Part shown: positions 48,938 through 62,362 of the stretch, in pieces
How positions within the stretch are numbered: the stretch's first letter is position 1
How the letters are laid out: each line of letters begins with the position of its first letter
Assembly: GCA_963810275.1 (NCBI GenBank)
Contig: CAWENF010000003.1
Location: forward strand, 96,001 to 160,000
Reading direction: 5' to 3'
Origin: an uncultured archaeon
GTDB lineage: Archaea > Thermoproteota > Bathyarchaeia > Bathyarchaeales > Bathycorpusculaceae
DNA: 64,000 bases
Translations under genes and position numbers: made by a program
The notes under the pieces: generated by a model
Told to the model about the DNA's origin: nothing
Database searches by the model: none
Seen by the model: the letters and a program-made list of their open reading frames with translations, nothing else

Positions 48938-49150
48938 GAGACTCAGTCCTAATTCATTTGGGAAGCTGCCGCCTTAAAAATGCTATCATTAATGGATAGG
49001 ATTCGTAGCTGCTTTCCAAAAGGTTAGCAGGTGTTTTCTGCATTTTTAGACGAGTTCGCTTGGATAAAGCAGGCGGTTAACAGGGTTATGCGTAAATATT
49101 ATATGCGTGCTTTTGCTTCTTCGGTTTGCATTAAGGGTCTGTGGCTTAAT

Positions 49151-50656
49151 TTGTCTAAAGACGGCACTCGCACCATTGAAGAGATTAATGATAAGATACG
49201 AAAAGGCGACGCTCAAGTTTTAACTGCTGAGGAAATGAAAAAACTAGTCGAAAGCAGCGGCGTAGAAGTCGCCTTCAAAGAAGTAGATGTAGTTACAACT
49301 GGCACTTTCGGCGCTATGTGTAGCAGTGGTGCACTTATCAACGTGGGGCACTCAGATCCACCCATCAAAATCGACCGCGCATGGCTAAACGACGTCGCCG
49401 TCACACACCCCGGAGCGGCAGTCGACCTTTTTATCGGTGCCACCAACATGACCGATAAGCACAACTATGACTACGGTGGAGGACACGTCATATCTGACCT
49501 TGTGTCAGGCAAAGAAGTTGATTTCCGAGCTACAGGGGTAGGCACAGACTGCTATCCACGAACCAGCGTCCACACAACCATAACCAAAGACGACCTCAAC
49601 CAGTTCCAACTCATCAACTTCCGCAACTGCTACCAAAAATACAACTGTGCAGTAAACGGGAGTGACGAAATCATCTATACGTATATGAGCAAGCTTTTGC
49701 CCCGATTCCGCAACGCTACTTTTAGTGGCGCAGGCGAACTCAATCCCTTAATGAACGACCCAGACTATGAAACCATTGGGCTGGGCACACGCATTTTTCT
49801 TGGAGGCGGACAAGGCTACATCATCGGGGAAGGAACGCAGCACAGCCCCCAAAGCCAAGATGGAACACTAATGGTGAAAGGCGACGCTAAGAAGATGTCC
49901 TCCGAGTTTTTGCAAGGAGCCAGCTTCACTAAGTACGGCACCAGCATGTATGTCGGACTGGGCATCCCAATCCCTATCCTAAACATGGGAATAGCAAGGA
50001 AAACAGCGATTCGAGACAGCGAAATCTTCACCAACATCGTCGACTACAGTGTTCCCAGACGGGACCGACCTAAATACGGGAAAGTCAGCTATCAAGAACT
50101 CAAATCAGGCACCATAAACGTCAACGGAAAAAAAGTCCGCGTTAGCTCACTGAGCAGCATTAAAATGGCGAAACAAGTCTCCAAAACCCTCAAACAATGG
50201 ATTGAAGAAGGTAAATTCACCCTTACAGCACCCATCGAGCGGCTCCCCACCAACACCACATTCAAACCAATGCGACAAACCGAGGAAATCCCGTTCGTCG
50301 TCAGTGTCATGCATGCCGCCGTCACCTGCACCGAAAACGAGGAAATCCGAGCCATCGCAGAACGAATAGTCACCAAATCTGTCAACCACATTGTCGTCAT
50401 AGATGATGTAGGCAAAATCCGAGGCATCGTCACCTCGTGGGACATCACCCGAGCCATGGCGGAAGGCAAAAAAGCACTCGCTGACATTGAATCCAAAAAC
50501 GTGGTGACAGCCAAACCTGATGAGCCATTGGAAATCGCGTCTAAACGAATGGCACAGCACAGCATTTCCGCCCTGCCTGTTATAGATATAGAAAAGAAGG
50601 TTCTCGGAATCATCACATCTGAAGACGTGTCTAGACTATTGGGGAGAGGAAACTAA
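49151..50656 (+). CDS. L-aspartate semialdehyde sulfurtransferase (DUF39 + CBS pair; homocysteine biosynthesis, MA1821/MJ0100 family)
   Basis: RTIEEINDKI, DVVTTGTFGAMCSSG, NDPDYETIGLGTRIFLGG, tandem CBS domains; probable TTG start 49151. Confidence 0.9.
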   Translation: MSKDGTRTIEEINDKIRKGDAQVLTAEEMKKLVESSGVEVAFKEVDVVTTGTFGAMCSSGALINVGHSDPPIKIDRAWLNDVAVTHPGAAVDLFIGATNMTDKHNYDYGGGHVISDLVSGKEVDFRATGVGTDCYPRTSVHTTITKDDLNQFQLINFRNCYQKYNCAVNGSDEIIYTYMSKLLPRFRNATFSGAGELNPLMNDPDYETIGLGTRIFLGGGQGYIIGEGTQHSPQSQDGTLMVKGDAKKMSSEFLQGASFTKYGTSMYVGLGIPIPILNMGIARKTAIRDSEIFTNIVDYSVPRRDRPKYGKVSYQELKSGTINVNGKKVRVSSLSSIKMAKQVSKTLKQWIEEGKFTLTAPIERLPTNTTFKPMRQTEEIPFVVSVMHAAVTCTENEEIRAIAERIVTKSVNHIVVIDDVGKIRGIVTSWDITRAMAEGKKALADIESKNVVTAKPDEPLEIASKRMAQHSISALPVIDIEKKVLGIITSEDVSRLLGRGN

Positions 50657-51087
50657 TGGGACGACTATATCTCCGCATGAATGAAGAGCAGGTTTCTGAG
50701 CCTATAGCCTCGCAAATCATCATCGAGTATAAGGTGCCCATGGCGATTCTTTCAGCGCATATTAACTCAAAGGGCGGCGAAATTCTCGTTGAAGTGCCAG
50801 ATGAAATCGAGGACAAAATCGTGGAGGCTTTTCGCAGCCGAGGGGTCATCGTTACCGTTCCCAAACTCATCGAAGTGGACAGCGAAAAATGCTTTAGCTG
50901 CGGCAGCTGTGTCGCGCTTTGCCCAGTGGAAGCGATCAAAACAACCCGAGACGGCTCCGTCGAATTTGATAAAGAACGCTGTTTGGGAAACACATGTGGG
51001 ATTTGTGTTGATGCCTGCCCAGCGCGGGCCATCAAGTCGCTTAAGCCCAACGGCAATGGGAATGCTAACAGGGACAAAAAAAGTTGA
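50656..51087 (+). CDS. NIL-domain ferredoxin partner of the sulfurtransferase (MA1822-like)
   Basis: EPIASQII..ILSAHI NIL domain; CFSCGSCVALCP and CGICVDACP; coupled to the upstream gene. Confidence 0.88.
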   Translation: MGRLYLRMNEEQVSEPIASQIIIEYKVPMAILSAHINSKGGEILVEVPDEIEDKIVEAFRSRGVIVTVPKLIEVDSEKCFSCGSCVALCPVEAIKTTRDGSVEFDKERCLGNTCGICVDACPARAIKSLKPNGNGNANRDKKS

Positions 51088-51785
51088 ACCCCAAACTATT
51101 AAGAGAAGCGTTCACCCTAAAGGAAAGCCAATGTACCTTTGTTTCTGACAGCCCAGAAGCCCTCGAAGTCGCCAAACAATCCATCCATTGCAGCCGCCTT
51201 GACCTTGAACTCTACGTGCGAATGAACCCAAAATTCGAGCACACCCTCACGCCCGTAGATGTTCCTGAAAAGCCGCTTGTCGCCAAACTCATGGCTGAAG
51301 CAGCTGTTTTGGCTAAGGTAGGTCCTATGGCGGCAGTGGCGGGCGCTATAGCGGACATAGCTGTAGCGGATATGCTCAGAATTGGATGCAAGGTGGCGGT
51401 GGTGGAGAACGGCGGCGAAATCATGGCACAAGCCAACCAGCCTGTGGATGTAGCAGTAGCTGCAGGGGAGGAGCCGCTTTCCAAATGCTTCGGTTTTAGA
51501 TTAGCAGATTTTCCAATCGCTGTCGCCACTAGTTCCGGTAGGTTTAGCCACGCTTTCAGCTTCGGCGACGCAGAAGCAGCCATCGTCTTCGGCAAAAACG
51601 CATCTTTAGCGGATGCTGCGGCGACTGCGGTGGGTAACGAGGTGAAGGGCGAGGACGTGCAGGAGGCGATTCAAGAGGGCATAAAAAGAGCCTTAAGTAT
51701 TGAAGGAGTCGAGGGGGTAATGATCATCTACCGCGGCGAAGTAGGCACCGCAGGCAAAATTCCCAAACTTATCAAACTCAGCTAA
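51084..51785 (+). CDS. UPF0280/ApbE-like protein (COG2122, sulfide assimilation)
   Basis: VGPMAAVAGAIAD, VENGGEI, ATSSG..HAFSFG, ADAAATA. Confidence 0.88.
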   Translation: MNPKLLREAFTLKESQCTFVSDSPEALEVAKQSIHCSRLDLELYVRMNPKFEHTLTPVDVPEKPLVAKLMAEAAVLAKVGPMAAVAGAIADIAVADMLRIGCKVAVVENGGEIMAQANQPVDVAVAAGEEPLSKCFGFRLADFPIAVATSSGRFSHAFSFGDAEAAIVFGKNASLADAAATAVGNEVKGEDVQEAIQEGIKRALSIEGVEGVMIIYRGEVGTAGKIPKLIKLS

Positions 51786-52072
51786 GCTGCCCGCTTTGCT
51801 CTGCGCCGGTTCTGAGACGCGCCAACCCATTTCCCTAATAGCAGCGTATTTTGTGTTGTCTTGCCTCAGTAACTACGAACGTAGGTCTCATTAACGGATT
51901 CCCTAACTCAAACGCCAAACTACAGCGCGGATTAGCATGGAGGAAATCTGAATCCTTCCAATCTGCGGACAGCTACATAGCCCGAATCGACAAACTATTT
52001 AATGAAGGAAAAAACAACATCAATAGAGGCACACAAATACCTTGCCGCTGAGTAGTACCGCAAACTTGACTC

Positions 52073-52088
52073 CGAAACGCTTATATTT
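52073..52088 (+). promoter_or_regulatory. BRE/TATA promoter of the aromatic amino-acid operon
   Basis: CGAAACG-CTTATATTT; predicted start site near 52110, just before the leader ATG. Confidence 0.6.
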
Positions 52089-52120
52089 TTTGTAAGGTGA
52101 CTCATTTGCGGGTCGAAGCA

Positions 52121-52207
52121 ATGATATACACATTAGTAATAAGCAGTAACGCACTGCAATTTGGCAGCTTCGACTATGGCTTTTATTATTTCGGTTATTT
52201 TCCTTAA
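52121..52207 (+). CDS. Putative Phe/Tyr-sensing leader peptide (28 aa)
   Basis: ATG..TAA reads MIYTLVISSNALQFGSFDYGFYYFGYFP; 9 of the last 15 codons are Phe/Tyr; ends 56 nt before the operon's first ATG. Confidence 0.72.
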   Translation: MIYTLVISSNALQFGSFDYGFYYFGYFP

Positions 52208-52245
52208 GCCCAGAACGGTCAAAATTTTTGAGTAAAGTTCTGGGC
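52208..52245 (+). promoter_or_regulatory. Leader hairpin (attenuator/antiterminator candidate)
   Basis: GCCCAGAAC/GTTCTGGGC perfect 9 bp plus inner TCAAA/TTTGA; begins at the base right after the leader stop. Confidence 0.6.
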
Positions 52246-52263
52246 AACAAACGGGTGTAGCAA

Positions 52264-53508
52264 ATGACGAAACAACTCTCTAAACGTAAACTAGTAGTAA
52301 AATTCGGCGGCTCCAGCTTATCTGACCACGAACGCATGCTAAAAGCAGTTATGGCAGTTGTAAAAGAAGCACAGAAGGGCACGAAACTCGCCGTGGTAGT
52401 ATCAGCTATGGGCAAAACAACCGATGTGCTTCTAGCCACGGCTAAGAGCACTTCAAATGGTAAACTCCAAAAACATGAACTCGATGAAATCCTTTCCATG
52501 GGCGAACGCACTAGCATGCGCATCTTCGCCACCGCCTTACGCAACAACGGCGTGGACGCCTGCTACTTCGACCCTATTGATAATAAGTGGCCAATCATCA
52601 GTGACGAGGCTTTCCAAAATGCCAATCCAGACCTTAAAGAATGTAGCAAGAAAATCAAAGAATACATCCAGCCCTTGGTTGAGGCAGGCACTATACCGGT
52701 AATTGCGGGTTTCGTCGGGAAAACTGAGGATGGAAAAATCACCACAATGGGCAGGGGCGGAAGCGACACCACCGCCTTCATTTTAGCAGAAGGCATAGGT
52801 GCAGACCAAGTGGTGCTTGTAACTGACGCAGATGGCATCATGAGCAGTGACCCTAAAATCATAAAGAACCCGAGGCTTCTGCAAACAATCGACGTTAACA
52901 CGCTGGTGGGTTTGGCTGATTCAGGAGCGAAATTTATTCACGCCAAGGCGCTTAAATACAAACCTAAAGCTATCGATGTGAAAGTCATCAGCAACAAGCA
53001 CGGCGACTTAAGCAAAGACGGCACAATCATCACCGGCGCGTTGGCGTGGGAATTGAATGCGGAAATAGCTAATCCCTCTTCCGTAGCGGAGATAACCGTT
53101 ATTGGTAAAGGCTTGTCAGCAAATCCTCAAGTCATAACCGAAATTGTTCAGAAAGTAAAGCAGAACAGCAGATTACTGGGCATGTCAATGAACACTAACT
53201 CCATAATACTCTACGTGCCCCAAACCGACATCATCGACGAACTCTTCGACCAGATTCACCAAATCACAATAAACAACAAAGAAACCATCGCCATGGCAGT
53301 CAAAAAAGACTTAGTGCTCATCAAAACCAGCGGTGTTGGCTTAGAGGAAACCCAGGGTCTCATCGGCAAAATCAGCGAGGACCTGCGCGTAAAGGGGATA
53401 AACATCAGCGGCATCTTAACCATCACATCCAGTATTTTGCTATTTGTTGATTGGAATGAGAAAGAGAAAGCGCTAAAGTTAATTAAAAACGCTCTCAGAA
53501 ATCATTAG
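52264..53508 (+). CDS. lysC: Aspartate kinase with ACT domains
   Basis: VVKFGGSS, VVSAMGKTTD, GRGGSDTTA, TDADGIMSSDP. Confidence 0.93.
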   Translation: MTKQLSKRKLVVKFGGSSLSDHERMLKAVMAVVKEAQKGTKLAVVVSAMGKTTDVLLATAKSTSNGKLQKHELDEILSMGERTSMRIFATALRNNGVDACYFDPIDNKWPIISDEAFQNANPDLKECSKKIKEYIQPLVEAGTIPVIAGFVGKTEDGKITTMGRGGSDTTAFILAEGIGADQVVLVTDADGIMSSDPKIIKNPRLLQTIDVNTLVGLADSGAKFIHAKALKYKPKAIDVKVISNKHGDLSKDGTIITGALAWELNAEIANPSSVAEITVIGKGLSANPQVITEIVQKVKQNSRLLGMSMNTNSIILYVPQTDIIDELFDQIHQITINNKETIAMAVKKDLVLIKTSGVGLEETQGLIGKISEDLRVKGINISGILTITSSILLFVDWNEKEKALKLIKNALRNH

Positions 53509-53521
53509 GGTGGATGCACAA

Positions 53522-54313
53522 ATGAACGAGGGAAAAATTCGCAGACTTAAAAAAATCATTCAGAAAGATAACCGCACCGTAATTGTACCCATGGATCACG
53601 GTGTCACCATTGGACCCGTCACTGGCATAGTGAACATGCAAAAAATCACCGACCAACTAGTCAAAGGAAAAGCCGACGCAATCCTTGTGCATAAAGGCAT
53701 TGCACGCCGCATCGACGTTGACGGAGCAGGCTTAATCGTTATGCTTTCAGGTGCATCCAGCCTCGGACCAAACCCCAACGGCAAAGTTCAAGTCTGCAGC
53801 GTTCAAGAAGCAGTTCGGTTGGGCGCGGAGGCAGTTTCTGTTCACATTAACGTAGGCGCCCAAGATGAAGACAAGATGCTCTGCACTTTGGGTAAGGTGG
53901 CAGAGGAATGCGAAGTCTTCGGCATGCCACTTCTGGCTATGATGTACCCGAGGGGACCCCGAATCACCAACGAACACGCTCCCGAAGTCGTGGCTCACGC
54001 AGCCCGCATTGGTGCAGAACTCGGAGCAGATATAATAAAAACCAACTTCACAGGCAACATAGAAACATTCAAGACAGTAGTAGAAAGCTGTCCCGCCCCA
54101 GTAGTCATCGCAGGCGGACCGAAATGCAAAAGCGTCGAAGAAATCTTGCAAACCACACATGACGCAATCCAAGCAGGCGCTGCGGGGCTTAGCATCGGCA
54201 GAAACATTTTCCAATGCGAAACGCCCACTAATATTACAAGGGCGCTTGCCGCCATCGTTCATGAGAAAGCCACCGTGGCGGATGCGCAAAAGTTTTTGGG
54301 TGAAAAACTTTGA
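53522..54313 (+). CDS. aroA': 2-amino-3,7-dideoxy-D-threo-hept-6-ulosonate (ADH) synthase
   Basis: Class I aldolase motifs VPMDHG, MMYPRG, GADIIKT, VIAGG, GRNIFQ; adjacent to DHQ synthase II. Confidence 0.9.
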   Translation: MNEGKIRRLKKIIQKDNRTVIVPMDHGVTIGPVTGIVNMQKITDQLVKGKADAILVHKGIARRIDVDGAGLIVMLSGASSLGPNPNGKVQVCSVQEAVRLGAEAVSVHINVGAQDEDKMLCTLGKVAEECEVFGMPLLAMMYPRGPRITNEHAPEVVAHAARIGAELGADIIKTNFTGNIETFKTVVESCPAPVVIAGGPKCKSVEEILQTTHDAIQAGAAGLSIGRNIFQCETPTNITRALAAIVHEKATVADAQKFLGEKL

Positions 54314-55332
54314 AGGAACTCTGGGTAGAAATATTAAAAGAAGACCAGAAAGGCTCAATGCAAGAGGCAGCTGCACAATTCAGCGACGCTGTTATCGAAG
54401 AGAACTCTGTTGTTTTTGTAGCAGCCGACGAACACGTAGCCCTATCGCCGCTTACCAAAGAGACCCTTAACGAGCAAAACACAACTGAAAAAATCTTCCG
54501 CATAACCATAAGCGATAAAGAATCAGAGAACCTAACAGTTGAAGCTGCACAATTAGGCGCTAACTACATAATTATCGGATGCGCAAACTGGCGCGTCATC
54601 CCACTGGAAAACTTGATTGCCCGAATCAAGGGCAAAAGCAAACTCATCGCTGAAGTTGCCAGCGCTGAAGAAGCAAAAGTCGCAGTTGAAACCCTAGAAT
54701 TGGGAACCGACGGCGTACTCCTCAGAACATCAAGCCCCGACGAGCTGATGAAAACCGTTTCCATCGTCAAACCCGAAGCGCTCAAACTACAGATGGCAAC
54801 AGCCAAAATCGTATCTTCCAAACCCATCGGCACAGGTGCACGCGTCTGCGTTGACACATGCGACCTAATGACTCAAGGCGAAGGCATGCTGTCAGGCAGC
54901 CAAAGCGCCGGGCTCTTCCTAGTCGAAGCTGAAGTAAACGAAAATCCCTATGTCGCATCACGGCCTTTCCGCGTGAACGCAGGTTCATGCTCTATGTACA
55001 CGTTAGGGAACCTGCAGACGACAAGGTACCTGCAAGAGTTCAAAGCAGGAGACGAAGTCATACTCGTTAACCGAGAAGGTAAAACCCGCAAAGCAAACGT
55101 GGGTCGCATAAAAATCGAAATCCGTCCCCTCATCCTAATCGAAGCCCAAGCAGAAGGCAAAATCATCAAGGTTATTCTGCAGAACGCTGAAACCATCCGC
55201 GTCGTTACCCCGTCAGGCTCTAAACCCGTTACTGACCTTAAAGCAGGTGACGAAGTCATCGTGCATTTAGCCGCCAAAGGCGGACGCCACTTCGGAATAT
55301 CTGTGCCTGACGAAACGGTGATAGAGAAGTGA
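54310..55332 (+). CDS. aroB': 3-dehydroquinate synthase II
   Basis: WRVIPLEN, RVCVDTC, RPFRVNAG, ILQNAETI, GRHFG. Confidence 0.95.
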   Translation: MKELWVEILKEDQKGSMQEAAAQFSDAVIEENSVVFVAADEHVALSPLTKETLNEQNTTEKIFRITISDKESENLTVEAAQLGANYIIIGCANWRVIPLENLIARIKGKSKLIAEVASAEEAKVAVETLELGTDGVLLRTSSPDELMKTVSIVKPEALKLQMATAKIVSSKPIGTGARVCVDTCDLMTQGEGMLSGSQSAGLFLVEAEVNENPYVASRPFRVNAGSCSMYTLGNLQTTRYLQEFKAGDEVILVNREGKTRKANVGRIKIEIRPLILIEAQAEGKIIKVILQNAETIRVVTPSGSKPVTDLKAGDEVIVHLAAKGGRHFGISVPDETVIEK

Positions 55333-56012
55333 TTCCCCAAATCTGCGTCTCGATTCTACCTAAAAACACAAACGAAGCATTAGAGTTAATTGTGAAAGCT
55401 GAAGCGGAAGGGGCAAACTTTGTTGAGGTACGCATGGACTGCCTAGAAGTAATAGGTGAACTTGCGAATTTACCTAAAAGCACAAGATGCCCTTTAATTG
55501 CTACTAACAAGCTCCCGGATGAAGGTGGCTTCTTTTCAGGTTCCGAAGCAGACCGTAAACAAATCTTACTTAACGCTGTTAAAAGCGGCTTCCAATATGT
55601 GGATGTAGACTTTTGCAGTCCTAACCCAGCGGAAGCAGTTGCATTGTTTAAATCTTCGGGCGCAAAGGTGGTGGTATCGTACCATAAACCGGACGGCACT
55701 CTGCCACATTACGCATTGGAGAAGGTACTAAAAAACCAGCTTGACTCCGGAGCAGATGTCTGCAAAATCATCACAACCGCCAAAAAAACCGAAGACAACC
55801 TGGTAGTTCTACGCTTCATCTCGGAAAACGCAGCAAAAACAAAACTAGTTTGCTTCTGTATGGGTGAAGCAGGCAAAACCTCAAGGCTGCTCTCACCAGT
55901 TTTCGGTGCATTCTTCACTTTCGCCGCGTTGTACACAGCCGCACAAACTGCACCGGGACAGATGAATATAAAAGAAATGTCCACTGCATACAGAATATTA
56001 GGGATAATTTGA
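55329..56012 (+). CDS. aroD: Type I 3-dehydroquinate dehydratase
   Basis: VEVRMD, EGG, VSYH, ADVCKI, FCMGEAGKTSR, APGQ. Confidence 0.93.
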   Translation: MIPQICVSILPKNTNEALELIVKAEAEGANFVEVRMDCLEVIGELANLPKSTRCPLIATNKLPDEGGFFSGSEADRKQILLNAVKSGFQYVDVDFCSPNPAEAVALFKSSGAKVVVSYHKPDGTLPHYALEKVLKNQLDSGADVCKIITTAKKTEDNLVVLRFISENAAKTKLVCFCMGEAGKTSRLLSPVFGAFFTFAALYTAAQTAPGQMNIKEMSTAYRILGII

Positions 56013-56869
56013 TGACGATTTCGGGCAAGACACGGGTATGTGGAGTTATAGGAGATCCCATTGAGCACTCGCTTAGCCCCATCATGCATAACGCAGCGTT
56101 TGAAGCGATGGGACTAAACTACGTGTTTTTAGCGTTTAGGGTGAAGCCTTCCCGCGTAGCCGAAGCAGTAGACGGCATGCGAGCACTCAACATCCGTGGC
56201 TTAAACGTGACTATGCCTCATAAAAAGTTGGTTATGAAGAGCCTTGACCGCATCGACCTCGCCGCCCAGATAATTCAATCCGTAAACACAATCTTAAACC
56301 AGGGAAAACTGCTGTTTGGCTTCAACACTGACGGCGTCGGCGCAGTTAAAGCACTCAAAGAAAACGGTGTTGGATTAAAGGGACATAAAGTGCTGCTTTT
56401 AGGTGCAGGCGGCGCTGCCAGAGCAATCGCTTATTTAGTAGCCAAAGAAGCAGACGAACTCGCTGTGCTTAACCGAACAGCCAAACCCGCTCAGGAACTA
56501 TCTAAGCTTCTGGAGAAGTCTGTGAACAAAAAAATCGCCTACGGCACCCTCTCCCAAGCCGACATAGAGCACAACCTACAGGACAGCGACATCTTAATCA
56601 ACGCCACCTCTGTGGGAATGAAGCCGAAACCAACCGAAAGTCCCGTGCCCGCCGATTTGCTGCGCAGAAACCTCGCGGTTATGGATATAGTCTACAACCC
56701 GCTGGAAACCCAACTCTTAAAAGACGCAAAAGAAGCAGGCGCACACGTAGTGAACGGGGTGGAGATGCTGATTTATCAGGGCGCAGCATCCTTTGAAATC
56801 TGGACTGGCAAATCCGCGCCCGTTGAAGTTATGAGGAAGGCAGTGGTAACTCACTTACAGAAGGTGTAA
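56009..56869 (+). CDS. aroE: Shikimate dehydrogenase
   Basis: HSLSPIMHN, NVTMPHK, NTDG, GAGGAA, DIVYNP. Confidence 0.97.
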   Translation: MMTISGKTRVCGVIGDPIEHSLSPIMHNAAFEAMGLNYVFLAFRVKPSRVAEAVDGMRALNIRGLNVTMPHKKLVMKSLDRIDLAAQIIQSVNTILNQGKLLFGFNTDGVGAVKALKENGVGLKGHKVLLLGAGGAARAIAYLVAKEADELAVLNRTAKPAQELSKLLEKSVNKKIAYGTLSQADIEHNLQDSDILINATSVGMKPKPTESPVPADLLRRNLAVMDIVYNPLETQLLKDAKEAGAHVVNGVEMLIYQGAASFEIWTGKSAPVEVMRKAVVTHLQKV

Positions 56870-56873
56870 CAGG

Positions 56874-57743
56874 ATGGCGGGTGAAGCTGTGGCGGTGGCG
56901 CATGGCGCAGCAACAATCGTAAACGCTATAGCCTTGGGTAGGGGTGCAGCGTTCGGAGTTGACTTGTATACAAAAGCCGAAGTCAAACTAACAGGGGAAT
57001 CAGGCGTTTTTGAAGTGGAAATCACTTCCGACCCCAACGAGAGCACTTTGCTAGTTGAACGTACTGTTGCCCGAGTTCTGGAACACTTCAAAGCCCAAGA
57101 ACAATACGGTGCCAAAGTCAAAACCACCTCAAACATCCCAGCCGCCCGCGGACTCAAAAGCAGCAGTGTTGCCGCAAACGCAACAGCCCTTGCTACAATC
57201 GCCGCGCTGGAGAAGTCGCTGGACGACATTGAAATCGTCAGAATCGGCGTAGAAGCCGCATTTGACGCCAAATGCACAATCACAGGCGCCTTTGACGACG
57301 CATGCGCATCTTACTTCGGCGGAGCAGTCATAACCGACAACACACGTCGCCAGATTCTCAAGCAGCTCAGGCTTCCAAAAAACCTCTCAGTGCTGTTTTG
57401 GGTACCCGCCCAGAAAGCATACACTATCAACTCTGACGTTGATCGCCTTCAGACAGTTAAGCCACTGGTTGAGTTGGCGTTCGAGAAGGCAATGATGGGC
57501 AGCGTCTGGGATGCCCTAACACTCAACGGACTTGTTTACTCGGCGGCTTCGGGTCAGAACCCCGCCATCGCCATCGATGCACTACAGGCAGGCGCAGTCG
57601 CTGCTGGATTATGCGGTAAAGGACCCGCAGTTACCGCCGTCGTCCACTCCGACACAGCCGACAAAGTCAAAGCTGCACTCCAAAACTACGAAGGCAACGT
57701 TATCGAAGCACAGCTTAACGGCGAAAAAGCCAAGGTGTTCTAA
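56874..57743 (+). CDS. aroK: Archaeal (GHMP-family) shikimate kinase
   Basis: IVNAIALGRGAAFG, GLKSSS, ITGAFDDACAS. Confidence 0.95.
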   Translation: MAGEAVAVAHGAATIVNAIALGRGAAFGVDLYTKAEVKLTGESGVFEVEITSDPNESTLLVERTVARVLEHFKAQEQYGAKVKTTSNIPAARGLKSSSVAANATALATIAALEKSLDDIEIVRIGVEAAFDAKCTITGAFDDACASYFGGAVITDNTRRQILKQLRLPKNLSVLFWVPAQKAYTINSDVDRLQTVKPLVELAFEKAMMGSVWDALTLNGLVYSAASGQNPAIAIDALQAGAVAAGLCGKGPAVTAVVHSDTADKVKAALQNYEGNVIEAQLNGEKAKVF

Positions 57744-57744
57744 A

Positions 57745-59040
57745 ATGACATCAGTAACCGTCAAAAAAACGGATTGCATCTCTGGCGAAGTGCAAGCTCC
57801 TGCCTCAAAGGCTTACACTCAACGCATGGTTATCGCGTCAGCCTTATCCAACGGAACCTCCAAAGTGGAGAAACCACTGTTTTCCAAAGACACCGAAGCC
57901 GCCCTACGCGCAGTAACGGGGTTGGGCGCCAAAGTTGAAGCGGGAGACGGACAATGGACGATAACGGGAGTAGCCCAACTGGAAGCCCCCAGCGAACCCA
58001 TTGATTGCGGCGAATCAGGAGCCACGCTAAGGTTTATAGTACCAGTCGCGGCTTTGGCAGACGGTGTCTCCACGCTGCTTTTCCATGGCTCAATTGCTCG
58101 TCGCCCCATAGAGCCCCTGCTAAACAGCCTCCATGACTTGAATGCAGAGGCATTTGTTGGCAAGCACTGTGAGGTGGATGCGGTGTTTGTGCAGGGCGGA
58201 GGCATTGCAGGTGGAAGAACCGAGATTGCTGGGGATGTTAGTTCACAGTTTATTTCTGGTTTGACGTTTGCGTGTCCCTTGGCAAAGGCGGATTCTGAGA
58301 TTGTGCTTACGTCGCCATTAGAGTCGGCCGATTATGTGAAGATGACTCAGACAGTACTCAGCCAGCACGGCGTCAAAGTTGAAATTGAAGAAAGGCGTCT
58401 GCTAATTTCGGGAAATCAACGCTACAAACCCGCAGACGCAACTGTACCTGGAGATTTCTCTTCAGCAGCTTTTCTCCTTGCAGCAGCTGCAGTCACTAAA
58501 TCCAAAGTAAAAGTGGGCAACCTCGATTACGAGGCAGTGCAGGGCGACAAAGCCATCGTGGAAATCCTAAAAGAAATGGGTGTAAAAGTTATGGTCACAA
58601 GCGACAGCATTGAAGTGGAAGGCACGGGTGAAAAGCTCAGGCACTTCGATATAGACGCAAAAAATGTCCCTGACCTTGTCCCCGTACTTGCAGCCCTTGC
58701 ATGCTACGCAGACGGCACCAGCCACATAACAGGCGCCAAACGGCTTCGCCTCAAAGAATCCGATCGACTCGCCTCAACGCACTCCGAACTCACCAAAATG
58801 GGCGCACAAATCACCATAACCGAAGACGGTTTAACCATCAAAGGCACCAAACTCCACAGCGCAGTCATAGACCCTCATAACGACCACCGCATAGCAATGG
58901 CAGCCGCCGTCGCCGCAATCGGAGCAAAAGGCGAAACCACAATAGAGCACGCAGAGTGTATCAGAAAGTCTTATCCGCAGTTCTTCCATCACTTAAAGCA
59001 ATTAGGAGTTGAAGTGGTTGGCGGGAAACTCGATAGGTAA
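57745..59040 (+). CDS. aroA: EPSP synthase
   Basis: PASKA, CGESGATLRF, SSQFISG, RLKESDR, DHRIAM, KSYP; ATG start at 57745. Confidence 0.97.
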   Translation: MTSVTVKKTDCISGEVQAPASKAYTQRMVIASALSNGTSKVEKPLFSKDTEAALRAVTGLGAKVEAGDGQWTITGVAQLEAPSEPIDCGESGATLRFIVPVAALADGVSTLLFHGSIARRPIEPLLNSLHDLNAEAFVGKHCEVDAVFVQGGGIAGGRTEIAGDVSSQFISGLTFACPLAKADSEIVLTSPLESADYVKMTQTVLSQHGVKVEIEERRLLISGNQRYKPADATVPGDFSSAAFLLAAAAVTKSKVKVGNLDYEAVQGDKAIVEILKEMGVKVMVTSDSIEVEGTGEKLRHFDIDAKNVPDLVPVLAALACYADGTSHITGAKRLRLKESDRLASTHSELTKMGAQITITEDGLTIKGTKLHSAVIDPHNDHRIAMAAAVAAIGAKGETTIEHAECIRKSYPQFFHHLKQLGVEVVGGKLDR

Positions 59041-60121
59041 AGAATTCACTGTTACAACGTTTGGGGAAAGCCATGGAAGAGTTGTCGGTGTAGTGGTTGA
59101 CGGCTGCCCCGCAGGTTTGCCCTTAAAAAAAGAAGATTTCCAAGAAGAGCTGGATAGGCGCATACCGAACCAGCCTAAAATCGTATCTGCCCGCGTGGAA
59201 AAGGACATGGCGCAGATTTTAAGCGGAGTCTTTAACGGCTACACGACGGGCGCACCCATCACATTGATGGTGGAAAATAAGGAGACTCAGTCCAGCGACT
59301 ACGACGCCGTCAAAAACACGCCCCGACCAGCCCACTCTGACTACCCTGCAAGCATCCGCTATGGCGGGTTTAATGACCATCGAGGCGGCGGTCGCTTCTC
59401 AGGCCGCGTTACAGTCACATTAATCATGGCGGGGGTTGTCGCCAAGAAGCTGCTAGCAAGATACAACATGGACGTTCTTGCATACACTCAAGCTATCGGA
59501 CCCGTTAAAAGCCACAAAGAGTTCCTCGCATCAGAAATTCGCAAGAACCGCAACGCGGCAGCCACCCGTTGCCCCGACTTGGAGTGTGCAGAGAAGATGG
59601 AGGAAGCCATCGTTGCCGCAAAAGAAGCAGGCGACAGCCTCGGCGGAGTCGTAGAATGCGTTGCACTTAACATTCCTGCTGGTGTTGGTGAACCGCTGTT
59701 TGACGCTTTGGATGCGGATTTGGCGAAGGCACTGTTTTGTGTGTCTGCGGTGAAGGGCGTAGAGTTTGGCGCCGGCTTCAAAGCTGCCGAAATGTGTGGC
59801 TCGGAAAACAACGACGCTTTCCTTATGAAAGGTGGCAAGGTAGTGACCGCAACCGAGAACGCGGGCGGCATCTTAGGCGGTTTGTCAAGCGGCATGCCCA
59901 TAGTCATCCGCGTCGCCATAAAACCCACACCCTCCATTGCGAAAGAGCAGAAAACCGTGGATTTAACCTCTATGCAAGATACCTGCATAACCGTCAAAGG
60001 CCGCCATGACCCATGCATTGTACCAAAAGCGGTGCCAGCTATAGAAGCCGCAGTAGCAGTAACCTTAGTTGACCACTTAATTCGAGTGGGAGAAATCCCC
60101 AAAACCCTAAAGGTGTACTAA
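59018..60121 (+). CDS. aroC: Chorismate synthase
   Basis: TFGESHG, RPAHSD, RGGGRFSGR, KPTPSI, GRHDPCI. Confidence 0.98.
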   Translation: MAGNSIGKEFTVTTFGESHGRVVGVVVDGCPAGLPLKKEDFQEELDRRIPNQPKIVSARVEKDMAQILSGVFNGYTTGAPITLMVENKETQSSDYDAVKNTPRPAHSDYPASIRYGGFNDHRGGGRFSGRVTVTLIMAGVVAKKLLARYNMDVLAYTQAIGPVKSHKEFLASEIRKNRNAAATRCPDLECAEKMEEAIVAAKEAGDSLGGVVECVALNIPAGVGEPLFDALDADLAKALFCVSAVKGVEFGAGFKAAEMCGSENNDAFLMKGGKVVTATENAGGILGGLSSGMPIVIRVAIKPTPSIAKEQKTVDLTSMQDTCITVKGRHDPCIVPKAVPAIEAAVAVTLVDHLIRVGEIPKTLKVY

Positions 60122-60122
60122 A

Positions 60123-60383
60123 ATGAGCGAGTTAGATTCGTTACGTGAAAAAATCGACGCAGTCGACGACCAAATCCTCCACGACTTCTTGCAACGTGTG
60201 AAAATTGCTCGCGCCATCGGCGAACTCAAGAGAAAAGAAGGCAGACCGGTGCATGACATCCACCGTGAAACCGAAGTTTTCAAGCGCGCCAGAGAGCGGG
60301 CGGAGCTTTTGAAGCTTGACCCTGAAAGAATTGAGCGTATCTACCACGAAATAGTTAATATGTGCAGCACCGTTCAACAGTAA
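60123..60383 (+). CDS. Monofunctional chorismate mutase (AroQ type)
   Basis: LDSLREKIDAVD..R..IGELK..RE. Confidence 0.92.
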   Translation: MSELDSLREKIDAVDDQILHDFLQRVKIARAIGELKRKEGRPVHDIHRETEVFKRARERAELLKLDPERIERIYHEIVNMCSTVQQ

Positions 60384-60413
60384 CGTTATCTCTCAACGGG
60401 GAGATGTTCCCAG

Positions 60414-61493
60414 ATGCTATATGAAATAAACGAGAAAGCACTCAAACTTGAAAGTGAAGGTAAAAAAATCGTCCGATTAAATCTTGGCGATCCCGATATG
60501 GCTACTCCGCCTGAAATCGTGGAAGCCGCTTATGCTGCAATGAAAGCAGGCAAAACCAAGTACAGCAGCAGCTATGGCGAGTTGAGGCTGCGGCAGAAAA
60601 TCGCTGATATCCATGGTGTTAAGGCAGAAAACGTGGTTATTACACCGGGCTCGAAGTGGGCTATTTTTTCCACCATGTTTCTCACTCTTAAAAACGGCGG
60701 CAACATCATCATCCCAACTCCGTACTGGACCGCTTACGACTTGATTGCGAAGAGTTTTGGCGCAAAAGTAAAGTTGCTACCAACAAAGATGGAGGATGGC
60801 TGGAAAATTGACCCCGCCAAACTTGAGGAACTCATCGACAGCGAGACAAAAATGATTCTTCTCAATAACCCAAACAACCCCACCAGCAAAGCCTTCGATG
60901 ACGCAACACTTGACGCCGTCGTGGAAGTAGCGAAAAGGAAAAAAGTACCCATCCTTTCAGACGAGGTTTACGGCGCAATTGCCTTCAAAAAAGTCAAAAG
61001 CATACTTGACTACGGCGAACTTGACAACAACATCGTCAGCAACGGCTTCTCAAAAACCTTCACAATGACTGGCTGGCGTGTAGGCTACCTTGTCGCAGAC
61101 AAAGCCCACATAGACAAAGTCACCAAACTCAACCAAATTACCTTCAACAACGTACCCGTCTTCATACAGGAAGCAGCACTCAAAGGCTTAGAACTCCACG
61201 CCCAAATCGCAGCCAACATCAAAGCAAAATACAAAACCCGCGCAGACCTCGCATCCAAGAAACTCAAAGAAGCAGGTTTCCAATTTACTGAACCAGATGC
61301 ACCCTTCTACGTGTTCCCCAAAAAAACCGGCTTGGATGGTACCAAATTCACTTTGGATTTGCTCGACAGCGGCGTTGCAGTTGCTCCTGGCTCAAGCTTC
61401 GGTGACCATCCAGAGCACTTCCGCATCAGCTTAACCGCTCCAGACGACCAAATCGAGTGGGCGATGAATAAAATCTGCGAGGCGGCTCAATGA
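60414..61493 (+). CDS. PLP-dependent class I/II aminotransferase (probable aromatic aminotransferase)
   Basis: NNPNNPT, SDEVY, GFSKTFTMTGWRVG; operon context. Confidence 0.92.
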   Translation: MLYEINEKALKLESEGKKIVRLNLGDPDMATPPEIVEAAYAAMKAGKTKYSSSYGELRLRQKIADIHGVKAENVVITPGSKWAIFSTMFLTLKNGGNIIIPTPYWTAYDLIAKSFGAKVKLLPTKMEDGWKIDPAKLEELIDSETKMILLNNPNNPTSKAFDDATLDAVVEVAKRKKVPILSDEVYGAIAFKKVKSILDYGELDNNIVSNGFSKTFTMTGWRVGYLVADKAHIDKVTKLNQITFNNVPVFIQEAALKGLELHAQIAANIKAKYKTRADLASKKLKEAGFQFTEPDAPFYVFPKKTGLDGTKFTLDLLDSGVAVAPGSSFGDHPEHFRISLTAPDDQIEWAMNKICEAAQ

Positions 61494-62362
61494 GGACAGC
61501 CGTTCTTGGCGCAGGAAAAATGGGCGTTTGGTTTGCCCGTTTCTGCAAAGAGAAAGGCGACACCGTAGTTTTAGCTGACCGCAAGCCTGAAAAGCTGGCG
61601 AAGTTGAAGGACGAGTTGGGCGTCGAAGTTGCTGATTTCCCAGCCGCAGTCAAGGAGGCTGACCGAGTCCTTATCTGCGTATCCATATCCTCTTTTGAGG
61701 AAACCGTCAAGAAAATCGCTGACTCAGTCCATAAAGGACAGCCAGTTATGGATGTGTGCTCCATCAAGGAGTATCCAGTTCAAGTTATGCATGAGTACCT
61801 CAAGGATGCTTTGGTTTTGGGTACACACCCTGTGTTTGGTCCGGGCAGCAACGGCGTTGCGCATAAAGCCTACGTGCTAACTCCCACTATGCCTGAAGAA
61901 GAAACTTACGCATTACAATACCAAAAATGGCTCGAGAAAGAAGGAGCCAACGTCTTTGTCATGACCCCAGCCAAGCACGACGAGCTCATGTCCATCATTT
62001 TGGGCTTCGCGCACTTCGTGGGGTTAGCTGCCTGCGAAACCCTGCTTGAACAGCCCGGCTTCGTGGAATCCAAAAAACTCGCTGGAACGACATACCGCAT
62101 GCTATTCACTCTTGCCGAAGCCGTAGCTATGGAAACCCCTGACTTGTACGCCAATGTGCAGACCAAGCTGGCGGGTATGGATAAAATCGAGGAAAAATTC
62201 ATCTCAAACGCCCAAGCTTGGGTGAACCTTATGAAACAAAAGGACTCTGCTGCCATCATGCAACGCATGGACAAGCTCCGAGCTAAACTCGAGAAAGCCG
62301 ACAAAGAATACGGTAAAAGCTACGAAGTAATGTACAAAATGTTACAGTCAACCGAGGAATAA
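61490..62362 (+). CDS. tyrA: Prephenate/arogenate dehydrogenase
   Basis: GAGKMG, DVCSIK, GTHPVFGP, HDELMS..HF. Confidence 0.93.
   Translation: MRTAVLGAGKMGVWFARFCKEKGDTVVLADRKPEKLAKLKDELGVEVADFPAAVKEADRVLICVSISSFEETVKKIADSVHKGQPVMDVCSIKEYPVQVMHEYLKDALVLGTHPVFGPGSNGVAHKAYVLTPTMPEEETYALQYQKWLEKEGANVFVMTPAKHDELMSIILGFAHFVGLAACETLLEQPGFVESKKLAGTTYRMLFTLAEAVAMETPDLYANVQTKLAGMDKIEEKFISNAQAWVNLMKQKDSAAIMQRMDKLRAKLEKADKEYGKSYEVMYKMLQSTEE

Follow-up and report, generated by a model that had tools for sequence, protein, structure and literature searches.

Bacterial attenuators such as pheL, trpL, hisL and aroR have a common layout, in which a short open reading frame (ORF) in the 5'-leader carries codons for the pathway product near its C-terminus and is followed by a stable hairpin. 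The pheL genes are short and contain runs of phenylalanine (Phe, F) codons (PMC3082878). In Corynebacterium glutamicum, a Phe-Tyr-Phe leader named aroR precedes the DAHP-synthase operon (aroF) and responds to Phe limitation (PMC11802643). The leaderless short ORFs with poly-cysteine (Cys) tracts of mycobacteria act on the next gene, as the stalled ribosome frees its sequestered ribosome-binding site (RBS) (10.1101/834739). In archaea, promoter recruitment has been described as the only known target of gene regulation (PMC8448881). For the archaeal aro, tyr-phe and trp operons, no more than two protein regulators have been characterised, TrpY in Methanothermobacter and Tar (TK0271) in Thermococcus, both of which bind DNA and act at promoters (PMC6737238). 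According to the same source, almost all Crenarchaeota are without Tar/TrpY homologues, and 'a third regulator or mechanism' is possible. The present text deals with a leader of the bacterial layout in the window, a stretch of 64,000 nucleotides (nt) from an uncultured archaeon of the Bathycorpusculaceae (Bathyarchaeia; assembly GCA_963810275.1, contig CAWENF010000003.1, positions 96,001 to 160,000). The ORF in question, at 52121-52207 on the + strand, is rich in codons for Phe and tyrosine (Tyr, Y) and lies directly in front of an operon that opens with an aspartate kinase (AK) gene. From its sequence and that of its relatives, it is probably a cis-acting, Phe/Tyr-sensing leader (attenuator) ORF that controls this AK-shikimate operon. 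By analogy, aroR would be the closest known system in content, and the poly-Cys short ORFs would be the closest in predicted mechanism and in (near-)leaderlessness.

The leader ORF consists of 28 sense codons and a stop codon and encodes MIYTLVISSNALQFGSFDYGFYYFGYFP, a peptide with five Phe, five Tyr and no tryptophan (Trp, W). Nine of these ten F/Y residues are found among the last 15, including the run FYYF. The regulatory codon tract proper, S F D Y G F Y Y F G Y F P (52166-52204, + strand), holds eight F/Y in 13 codons. Upstream, a putative promoter with a transcription factor B recognition element (BRE) and TATA box (CCGAAACG-CTTATATTTTTT, 52072-52091, + strand) was read from the sequence, and the same box is seen in relatives. 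The start of the TATA box lies 41 nt before the leader ATG, and the promoter motif predicts that the operon transcript starts about 10 nt 5' of this ATG. The leader stop codon, which ends at 52207, is separated from the AK start codon at 52264 by a spacer of 56 nt. This spacer contains the GGGUG of AK that resembles a Shine-Dalgarno (SD) sequence (52253-52257, + strand); relatives have a G-rich element 7-12 nt 5' of the AK start. The codon number, the F/Y counts, the spacing and the operon given in the original prediction of this leader were all borne out when the sequence was re-read and scanned with Pfam.

The ORF was then set against a null drawn from its own genome, for which a crude set of 2000 ORF-genes yielded 1482 upstream regions with 2240 short ATG ORFs, compared over 23 residue groups. 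Among these 2240 ORFs the leader is the best F+Y match (8/12, binomial 4e-6), and it takes rank 3 across the 23 residue groups. A looser statistic takes all stop-ended frames within 400 nt upstream and counts the highest number of F/Y among their last 15 residues. By this measure at least six F/Y occur in 127 of 1983 regions, and at least seven in 38. Once a positional rule is added (an ATG ORF of 18-45 codons that ends 35-85 nt 5' of the gene), at least six F/Y are left in two of the 1983 regions, the leader among them, and at least seven are reached by the leader alone. Five other short ORFs at the top for biased composition (two T-rich, one CCCCC, one M-rich and one H-rich) were checked and stand before unrelated genes: RadA, tRNA-guanine transglycosylase, a glycosyltransferase, V-ATPase subunit I and DUF131. 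A sixth downstream gene is without a Pfam match. These other composition-biased short ORFs of the genome are read as chance background.

The comparison among relatives carries most of the argument. Such relatives are kin and not independent samples, so the case is built on the persistence of the feature through sequence turnover between families and not on raw counts. AK orthologues were found in all 36 genomes drawn from the same genus; the order yielded them in 163 of 301 genomes and the class in 161 of 401. Within the genus, an ATG ORF of 24-29 codons ends 44-65 nt 5' of AK in 30 of 30 loci, with at least six F/Y among the last 15 residues in 29 of them. A CTTATAT-like box is located 40-48 nt 5' of the leader ATG in 29 of the 30 loci, and the 30th runs off the contig end. 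In five further loci of the genus the leader is present as well (5/5). The original prediction had asked whether relatives keep a start codon and a frame or mere U-richness: the ATG, the frame and the F/Y-rich end are all kept in the 30 and in the five further loci. In other genera and families of the order, at least five F/Y are seen in all 51 loci and at least six in 49, and the ORF ends 49-78 nt 5' of AK. Six loci that were fetched separately gave five clear leaders and a weak one (family f12; families are referred to by f and loci by L, each with a number).

The picture becomes more varied in the other orders of the class, from which 38 loci were fetched and 37 were long enough to read. 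At least six F/Y occur in 14 of these 37 loci, which belong to f14 (3/3), f19 (1), f27 (3/3), f30 (4/4), f32, f34 and f37. The leader of f15 is weak, a single f10 locus is positive, and f17 and f31, in which AK is more divergent, are intermediate or negative. The leader is lacking in f26 (11 loci), f35 (10) and f39 (1). Outside the class, only ten loci that were inspected individually are relied on, and clear leaders were found there in f57 (MSRSLTRQRTMRMFGYFYFYYFGP, then stop) and f46 (ending in FDSYSFSYFFFYSF before the stop). In operons that open with the AroA'-type gene and are without AK (f40, f47, f80 and f81), no leader was seen. Overall, the leaders are ATG-started, 17-34 codons long, rich in aromatic residues at the C-terminus and located at the same place 5' of AK. 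That of Candidatus Bathyarchaeum tardum M17C-01, for example, reads MNSHSTTTLTNSSMFYSFSYFFYN up to the stop codon.

Within the window's family, the tail S-F-D/E/G-Y-x-F-Y-Y is kept, and many leaders of the genus end in F-P-stop. Between families, the tails vary (SFDYGFYYFGYFP, FYSFSYFFYN, FFGSFGYFGY, FFTYFSGYYTTF, FFDFFYYYFYFE and MFGYFYFYYFGP) and the N-terminal halves cannot be aligned. Judged from these sequences, the peptide diverges between families, and its length, position and F/Y content persist. The head of the leader is polar and variable; the aromatic tail is what appears to be retained.

Some lineages deserve separate mention. In f44 (L252-L254), which belongs to another class, the aromatic tails are shorter (FFWTYY, FFHTYYY and FSSMFQYY, each before the stop codon) and only about 10 nt separate the stop from the AK SD, a gap that contains no long hairpin. 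This layout is a more compact variant, where a terminating or stalled ribosome would sit on the RBS of the gene that follows. In lineages without this F/Y-rich leader (f26, L107-L117; f35, L128-L137; f17/f31, L224-L234), a different conserved element is located about 75-135 nt 5' of AK. Its nucleotide motif is YTTTTCNGGNG..GTTTAC, and one frame can always be read as [LV]-F-[GR]-x..[VF]-Y in a short ORF, such as MGDHLFGDGVY… in f26 or MGGHLYWHKPAPETLIQV followed by a stop in one genus of f35. This alternative element could be a sequence-specific arrest peptide or an RNA motif that controls the same operon. In f24, a large family of the class, neither the AK orthologue nor DHQS-II was found in the genomes searched (0/71 for each), which suggests from gene content that f24 lacks this shikimate route.

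A caveat that came with the original prediction was that a U-rich tract may mimic a run of Phe and Tyr codons. This is answered by the codon positions of 89 leaders. In their last 12 residues, F, Y and W together make up 62.5%, compared with 7.2% in the remainder, and Trp is an occasional member of the tails (17 of 1068 tail residues). Across the last 12 codons, T makes up 64% of position 1, position 2 has 43% A and 30% T, and position 3 has 50% T, 41% C and 9% purine (91% pyrimidine). The pattern is therefore that of UUY/UAY codons and not of a U tract. Stops are found in the +1 frame of 63 and in the +2 frame of 80 of the 89 leaders; frame 0 was picked by the search, so that its being open is true by construction. 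All 46 aligned sequences from the clade of the window have an in-frame ATG, located 12-16 codons 5' of the tract, and they differ in length by whole codons. TAT and TAC alternate, as do TTT and TTC (at one Tyr position, for example, 13 TAT versus 31 TAC), and from the S codon to the stop 343 of 536 codons are F/Y. As far as sequence comparison goes, the ORF at 52121-52207 is confirmed as real and not as a chance U-rich tract.

The genes behind the leader fit this codon bias. The operon that the leader would control runs from AK to prephenate dehydrogenase (52264-62362, + strand) and was assigned by Pfam scans. AK, with AA_kinase and ACT domains, is the first gene. It is followed by a DeoC/LacD aldolase (AroA'-type), DHQS-II, a type I dehydroquinase (aroD), shikimate dehydrogenase (aroE) and a GHMP-type (shikimate) kinase. 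EPSP synthase, chorismate synthase, a CM_2 chorismate mutase, a class I/II aminotransferase and prephenate dehydrogenase come next, with a GATase behind them. From its predicted genes, the operon would comprise the shikimate route via the AroA'-type aldolase and DHQS-II together with the Tyr/Phe branch. AK is presumably the source of the aspartate-semialdehyde precursor for this route. The F/Y codon bias fits the pathway because the operon yields chorismate, prephenate and the precursors of Tyr and Phe. As originally predicted, the Phe/Tyr-branch genes are present and no trp genes were seen among the operon genes; trpE is found on another contig. The AK-first shikimate operon occurs in all 14 representative genomes, which cover 13 families.

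The operon shows some variation among these 14 representatives. In nine of them (L210, L212, L215, L216, L218 and L220-L223), AK and the AroA'-type gene are separated by a gene of about 1 kb. The window operon is without this gene, for which aspartate-semialdehyde dehydrogenase would be the expected product, as a candidate only. In three of the 14 operons, the AroA'-type gene is missing between AK and DHQS-II. The prephenate dehydratase (pheA, PDT family) of the window's genome is located just past the window end (contig C3, 160055-160867, - strand), inside another gene cluster. It is convergent with the leader-controlled operon and not under the leader.

Two RNA helices frame the ORF. The 5' arm of P1 (GGUCGAAGC, 52111-52119, + strand) lies at the predicted 5' end of the mRNA and ends 2 nt before the ATG, while its 3' arm (GCUUCGACU, 52167-52175, + strand) is found inside the S-F-D-Y codons. 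The helix is present in the minimum free energy (MFE) fold. It was overlooked by RNAalifold because MAFFT had misaligned the 5' arm, and was scored by anchoring on the motif instead; the pairs of its 7-bp core then form in 43-45 of 45 sequences. The changes in P1 form compensatory chains, namely C-G > U-G > U-A, U-A > U-G > C-G, and GC/UA/UG.

The second helix, P2 (52208-52245, + strand), is a hairpin from the RNAalifold consensus that begins at the first base 3' of the leader stop codon. Its 9-bp stem (GCCCAGAAC, 52208-52216, with GUUCUGGGC, 52237-52245) encloses a 20-nt loop with a T5 run at 52225-52229. In the clade alignment, 98.6% of 414 cells are paired, two pairs have changed on both sides in a compensatory way, and where one side alone has changed the pair stays G-U compatible. 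The covariation of 0.120 compares with 0.080 in shuffles; none of 500 shuffles reaches it, and it stands above all slid controls. The P2 motif occurs once in the genome. A hairpin at this position is common to the families: in 88 of 89 loci one starts between -3 and +6 nt from the stop end. The energies of these hairpins lie between about -14 and -22 kcal/mol, with a mean z between about -4 and -5.5, and the AK SD follows from a few nt to about 15 nt 3' of the hairpin. In several other families the 5' arm is purine-rich and the 3' arm pyrimidine-rich, with a short U linker before the SD. In other families, too, the start of the F/Y tract is paired with a segment upstream, as AGCCACUA with UAGUGGCU inside the leader of one group. 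When 51500-52600 was scanned against Rfam 15 (E up to 10), four chance hits were obtained (E 1.4-9.7), all far below the gathering scores.

A conserved small ORF that is the first cistron of an operon might also encode a functional aromatic micropeptide, for instance a membrane-active or enzyme-binding one, that is co-expressed with the pathway and has no role in cis. This is highly improbable. The sequence is not kept between families and the N-terminal half is free to vary, whereas the stop-abutting hairpin and the link to the SD of the next gene are conserved, and the residue bias matches the product of the pathway. The exact peptide is also absent from a collection of about 15 billion predicted proteins, in which an ORF of 28 codons would anyway be missed by most gene callers.

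In the preferred reading as an attenuator, the operon mRNA would begin about 10 nt before the leader ATG, and a ribosome that starts there would meet five to ten Phe/Tyr codons within about the last 13. When charged tRNA-Phe or tRNA-Tyr is scarce, the ribosome would dwell on the F/Y tract. When the charged tRNAs are plentiful, it would reach the stop codon abutting P2 and depart. The position and dwell time of the ribosome would set the fold of the 56-nt spacer (P2 and the surrounding pairs), and this fold would in turn set the expression of AK and of the shikimate and Phe/Tyr genes behind it.

For the output step, a translational variant is preferred in the window's clade, to which slightly less than half of the confidence placed in attenuation is given. 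In this variant, the U-rich F/Y tract, clamped by P2, would pair with the SD and AUG of AK (helix P3), and a stalled ribosome would free the site. P3 was predicted from the MFE fold (-42.9 kcal/mol, z = -2.9), where it spans 52186-52267 (+ strand), joins the F/Y codons to the ribosome-binding site of AK and encloses P2. The predicted pairs are 52186-91 with 52262-67, 52194-98 with 52257-61, and the UCC at 52201-03 with 52253-55, thereby covering the AK SD and AUG. When a 30-nt ribosome footprint is masked on the tract, the predicted RBS access in the window rises from 0.34 to 0.66. The same mask raises it in 39 of 73 loci and lowers it in 12, compared with 17 up and 12 down for a mask on the N-terminal part. 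Of the 43 loci of the window's clade, 29 have at least nine expected pairs between tract and RBS, compared with five of the 30 other loci. The arrangement is similar to that of the mycobacterial poly-Cys 'ribulon', which likewise has a first-cistron short ORF with a tract of pathway codons, and to whose sequestering duplex P3 would correspond in the window's clade. The mycobacterial system differs in being bacterial and in sensing Cys, and its duplex is reported as proven by mutation (10.1101/834739), whereas P3 is predicted and generic.

Several observations weigh against the attenuator reading. The TTT TAT TAT core of the tract (TTTTATTAT) is near-invariant even synonymously (43, 41 and 36 of 46 sequences), and a constraint at the RNA or DNA level must therefore act too. 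Part of the peptide conservation is also driven by the RNA, as S-F-D/E coincides with the 3' arm of P1 and is kept in the leader because that arm lies there. In f26, f35, f17 and f31, the place of the leader is taken by a different conserved element. The near-invariant core and this other element, along with the conserved helices P1 and P2 and the reported response of archaeal RNA polymerase to oligo-T (PMC13675443), would also be compatible with a structured RNA or DNA element (a protein site, a riboswitch-like sensor or a U-rich pause/termination signal) that can be read as an ORF by accident. Such an element is considered quite improbable, however, since the ATG, the frame, the stop, the length of 17-34 codons and the F/Y enrichment outlast differing nucleotide sequences and helices between families. 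The composition, with 41% C at position 3 and 43% A at position 2, is unlike a U tract, and there is no match in Rfam (best E 1.4). A DNA operator in particular is unlikely, since helix pairs that changed on one side keep to G-U compatibility on the + strand alone.

The conservation of the tail might alternatively point to an arrest peptide, in which the aromatic nascent peptide and free Phe/Tyr in the exit tunnel would together stall the ribosome at or near the stop codon. What is sensed would in that case be the free amino acid and not the charging of tRNA. TnaC, with its tryptophan-dependent stalling, is a bacterial precedent (PMC8429421), and the stop codon that directly abuts P2, the S-F-D/E/G-Y-x-F-Y-Y tail conserved within the family and the F-P-stop of many genus leaders would suit this mode of action. 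An arrest peptide needs specific residues, however, and between families the composition alone is shared and the tail sequences differ; within the family, helix P1 explains much of the conservation. In addition, the product should switch a biosynthetic operon off and not on, so that other wiring would be needed. An arrest-peptide sensor is therefore judged very improbable.

Two further points against the preferred attenuator reading concern the leader and its genome. The leader is without an SD and would require leaderless-type initiation. The search for sister leaders suggested with the original prediction came out negative: no His-, Trp- or branched-chain-rich leader was found at hisG, trpE or the ilvB-like gene of the same genome, and no W-, H- or ILV-rich ORF lies 5' of trpE and the two genes preceding it, hisG, the pheA operon or the ilvB-like gene.

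The remaining points relate to the output step. P3 is generic: the pairing of the cognate tract and RBS amounts to -7.5 kcal/mol versus -7.9 for non-cognate combinations, 1872 of 2000 permutations equalled this, and of 1998 other gene starts in the genome 64% form an at least equally strong pairing with the tract. The specificity of P3 does not exceed what chance would give between a U-rich tract and a purine-rich RBS. Specificity would therefore have to come from the P2 clamp and from proximity in cis, and P3 is kept as a plausible, predicted output only. In several other families, a mask near the stop lowers the predicted RBS access, and the models suggest that the sign or wiring of the output may differ between lineages. 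A bacterial-type terminator (a hairpin with a U run) is not found in the window, where AACAAAC comes after P2 and the T5 belongs to the loop. In 13 of 89 loci, and in none of the 46 of the window's clade, the hairpin is followed by a U run. No conserved antiterminator (2:3-type) alternative and no 1:2/2:3/3:4 helix set was found. With the terminator missing and alternative helices no more than predicted (P3), the locus is less of a 'classical attenuator', which does not make it less likely to 'work like one'. The leader-peptide attenuator of the original prediction is thus supported comparatively; its proposed output, read-through into the operon, is not established, as there is no terminator and a translational output fits the clade at least equally.

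A hairpin with a U run was considered as a universal output and rejected on account of its presence in 13 of 89 loci only. A scan with the sigma-70/terminator consensus gave one promoter-like match inside the ORF and no terminator on the + strand; this consensus is bacterial and inapplicable to archaea.

Termination may follow other rules in these organisms. The archaeal RNA polymerase is reported to terminate at oligo-T without a hairpin, and hairpins can enhance this (PMC13675443, citing Santangelo and Reeve 2006). The bacterial criterion of a hairpin and U run may therefore not apply. Of the 46 loci of the window's clade, 29 have a run of T5 or longer (T5-7) inside the P2 loop. Premature termination at such a run, or at P2 and a U run in other families, is a tentative second output that receives somewhat over a third of the confidence in attenuation. 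The rest is left to other outputs, such as blocked access of a termination factor or effects on mRNA stability. In a transcriptional mechanism, P1 could have the part of a helix for pausing or synchronising, or could lock the leader so that no more than one pioneer ribosome uses it.

It is possible, but rather unlikely, that the locus represents true ribosome-mediated attenuation in archaea, in which a pioneer ribosome coupled to RNA polymerase chooses between termination and read-through. In that case, termination would occur at oligo-U aided by the stop-abutting hairpin, P1 would be an element for pausing and synchronisation, and the Phe/Tyr leader ORF would be ancient and widespread in Bathyarchaeia and in some neighbouring classes. 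If true, no earlier attenuator that senses amino acids, and no earlier regulatory use of transcription-translation coupling, would have been described in archaea.

Compared with the bacterial attenuators, the leader differs in several respects. The host is an archaeon, the promoter is of the BRE/TATA type, and the ORF is near-leaderless and without an SD. The Phe and Tyr codons are mixed, and the operon opens with AK and uses the AroA'-type aldolase and the DHQS-II enzyme. In most loci, the SD of the next gene, not a U run, comes after the hairpin, which abuts the stop codon. TrpY and Tar share the physiological target with the leader and differ from it in being proteins that act on promoters (PMC6737238). 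The leader ORF would be a mechanism of the kind envisaged there for Crenarchaeota, here in a related lineage. In the full-text literature collection that was searched, no archaeal leader-peptide attenuator was found, and the term 'leader peptide' has 0 occurrences in a 2026 cross-domain review of termination (PMC13675443). The Phe/Tyr leader has apparently not been described in Archaea before; it is widespread among Bathyarchaeia and also in some lineages next to them.

With a conserved leader that senses codons, the Archaea would gain an entire layer of regulation. It would imply either a great age for the logic of attenuators or its evolution in both prokaryotic domains. A natural system would also be at hand for the study of transcription-translation coupling, leaderless initiation and termination in a lineage that is ecologically abundant and uncultured. 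The finding is directly testable, and the element, at about 150 nt, can be moved into tractable archaea. Among its carriers, Candidatus Bathyarchaeum tardum M17C-01 has a complete genome record and is presumably kept as an enrichment culture. The leader furthermore marks the AK-first shikimate operon and could improve the annotation of short ORFs in archaeal metagenome-assembled genomes.

Upstream of the leader, the window contains a homocysteine-biosynthesis pair (49031-51087, + strand), formed by an HcyBio-family gene with CBS domains and a NIL-domain 4Fe-4S ferredoxin. For the next ORF after this pair (51084-51785), Pfam gave no match. Two salt-marsh metatranscriptome runs (from two studies, with small word shares) contain contigs that match the window with at least 99% identity. 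In the compared region (51800-54300), they lie at 52890-53337 (AK) and 53517-53774 (AroA'-type gene) only; being contigs, they count neither for nor against transcription of the leader. Allowing that DNA carry-over is possible, a very close relative is represented in these salt-marsh RNA libraries.

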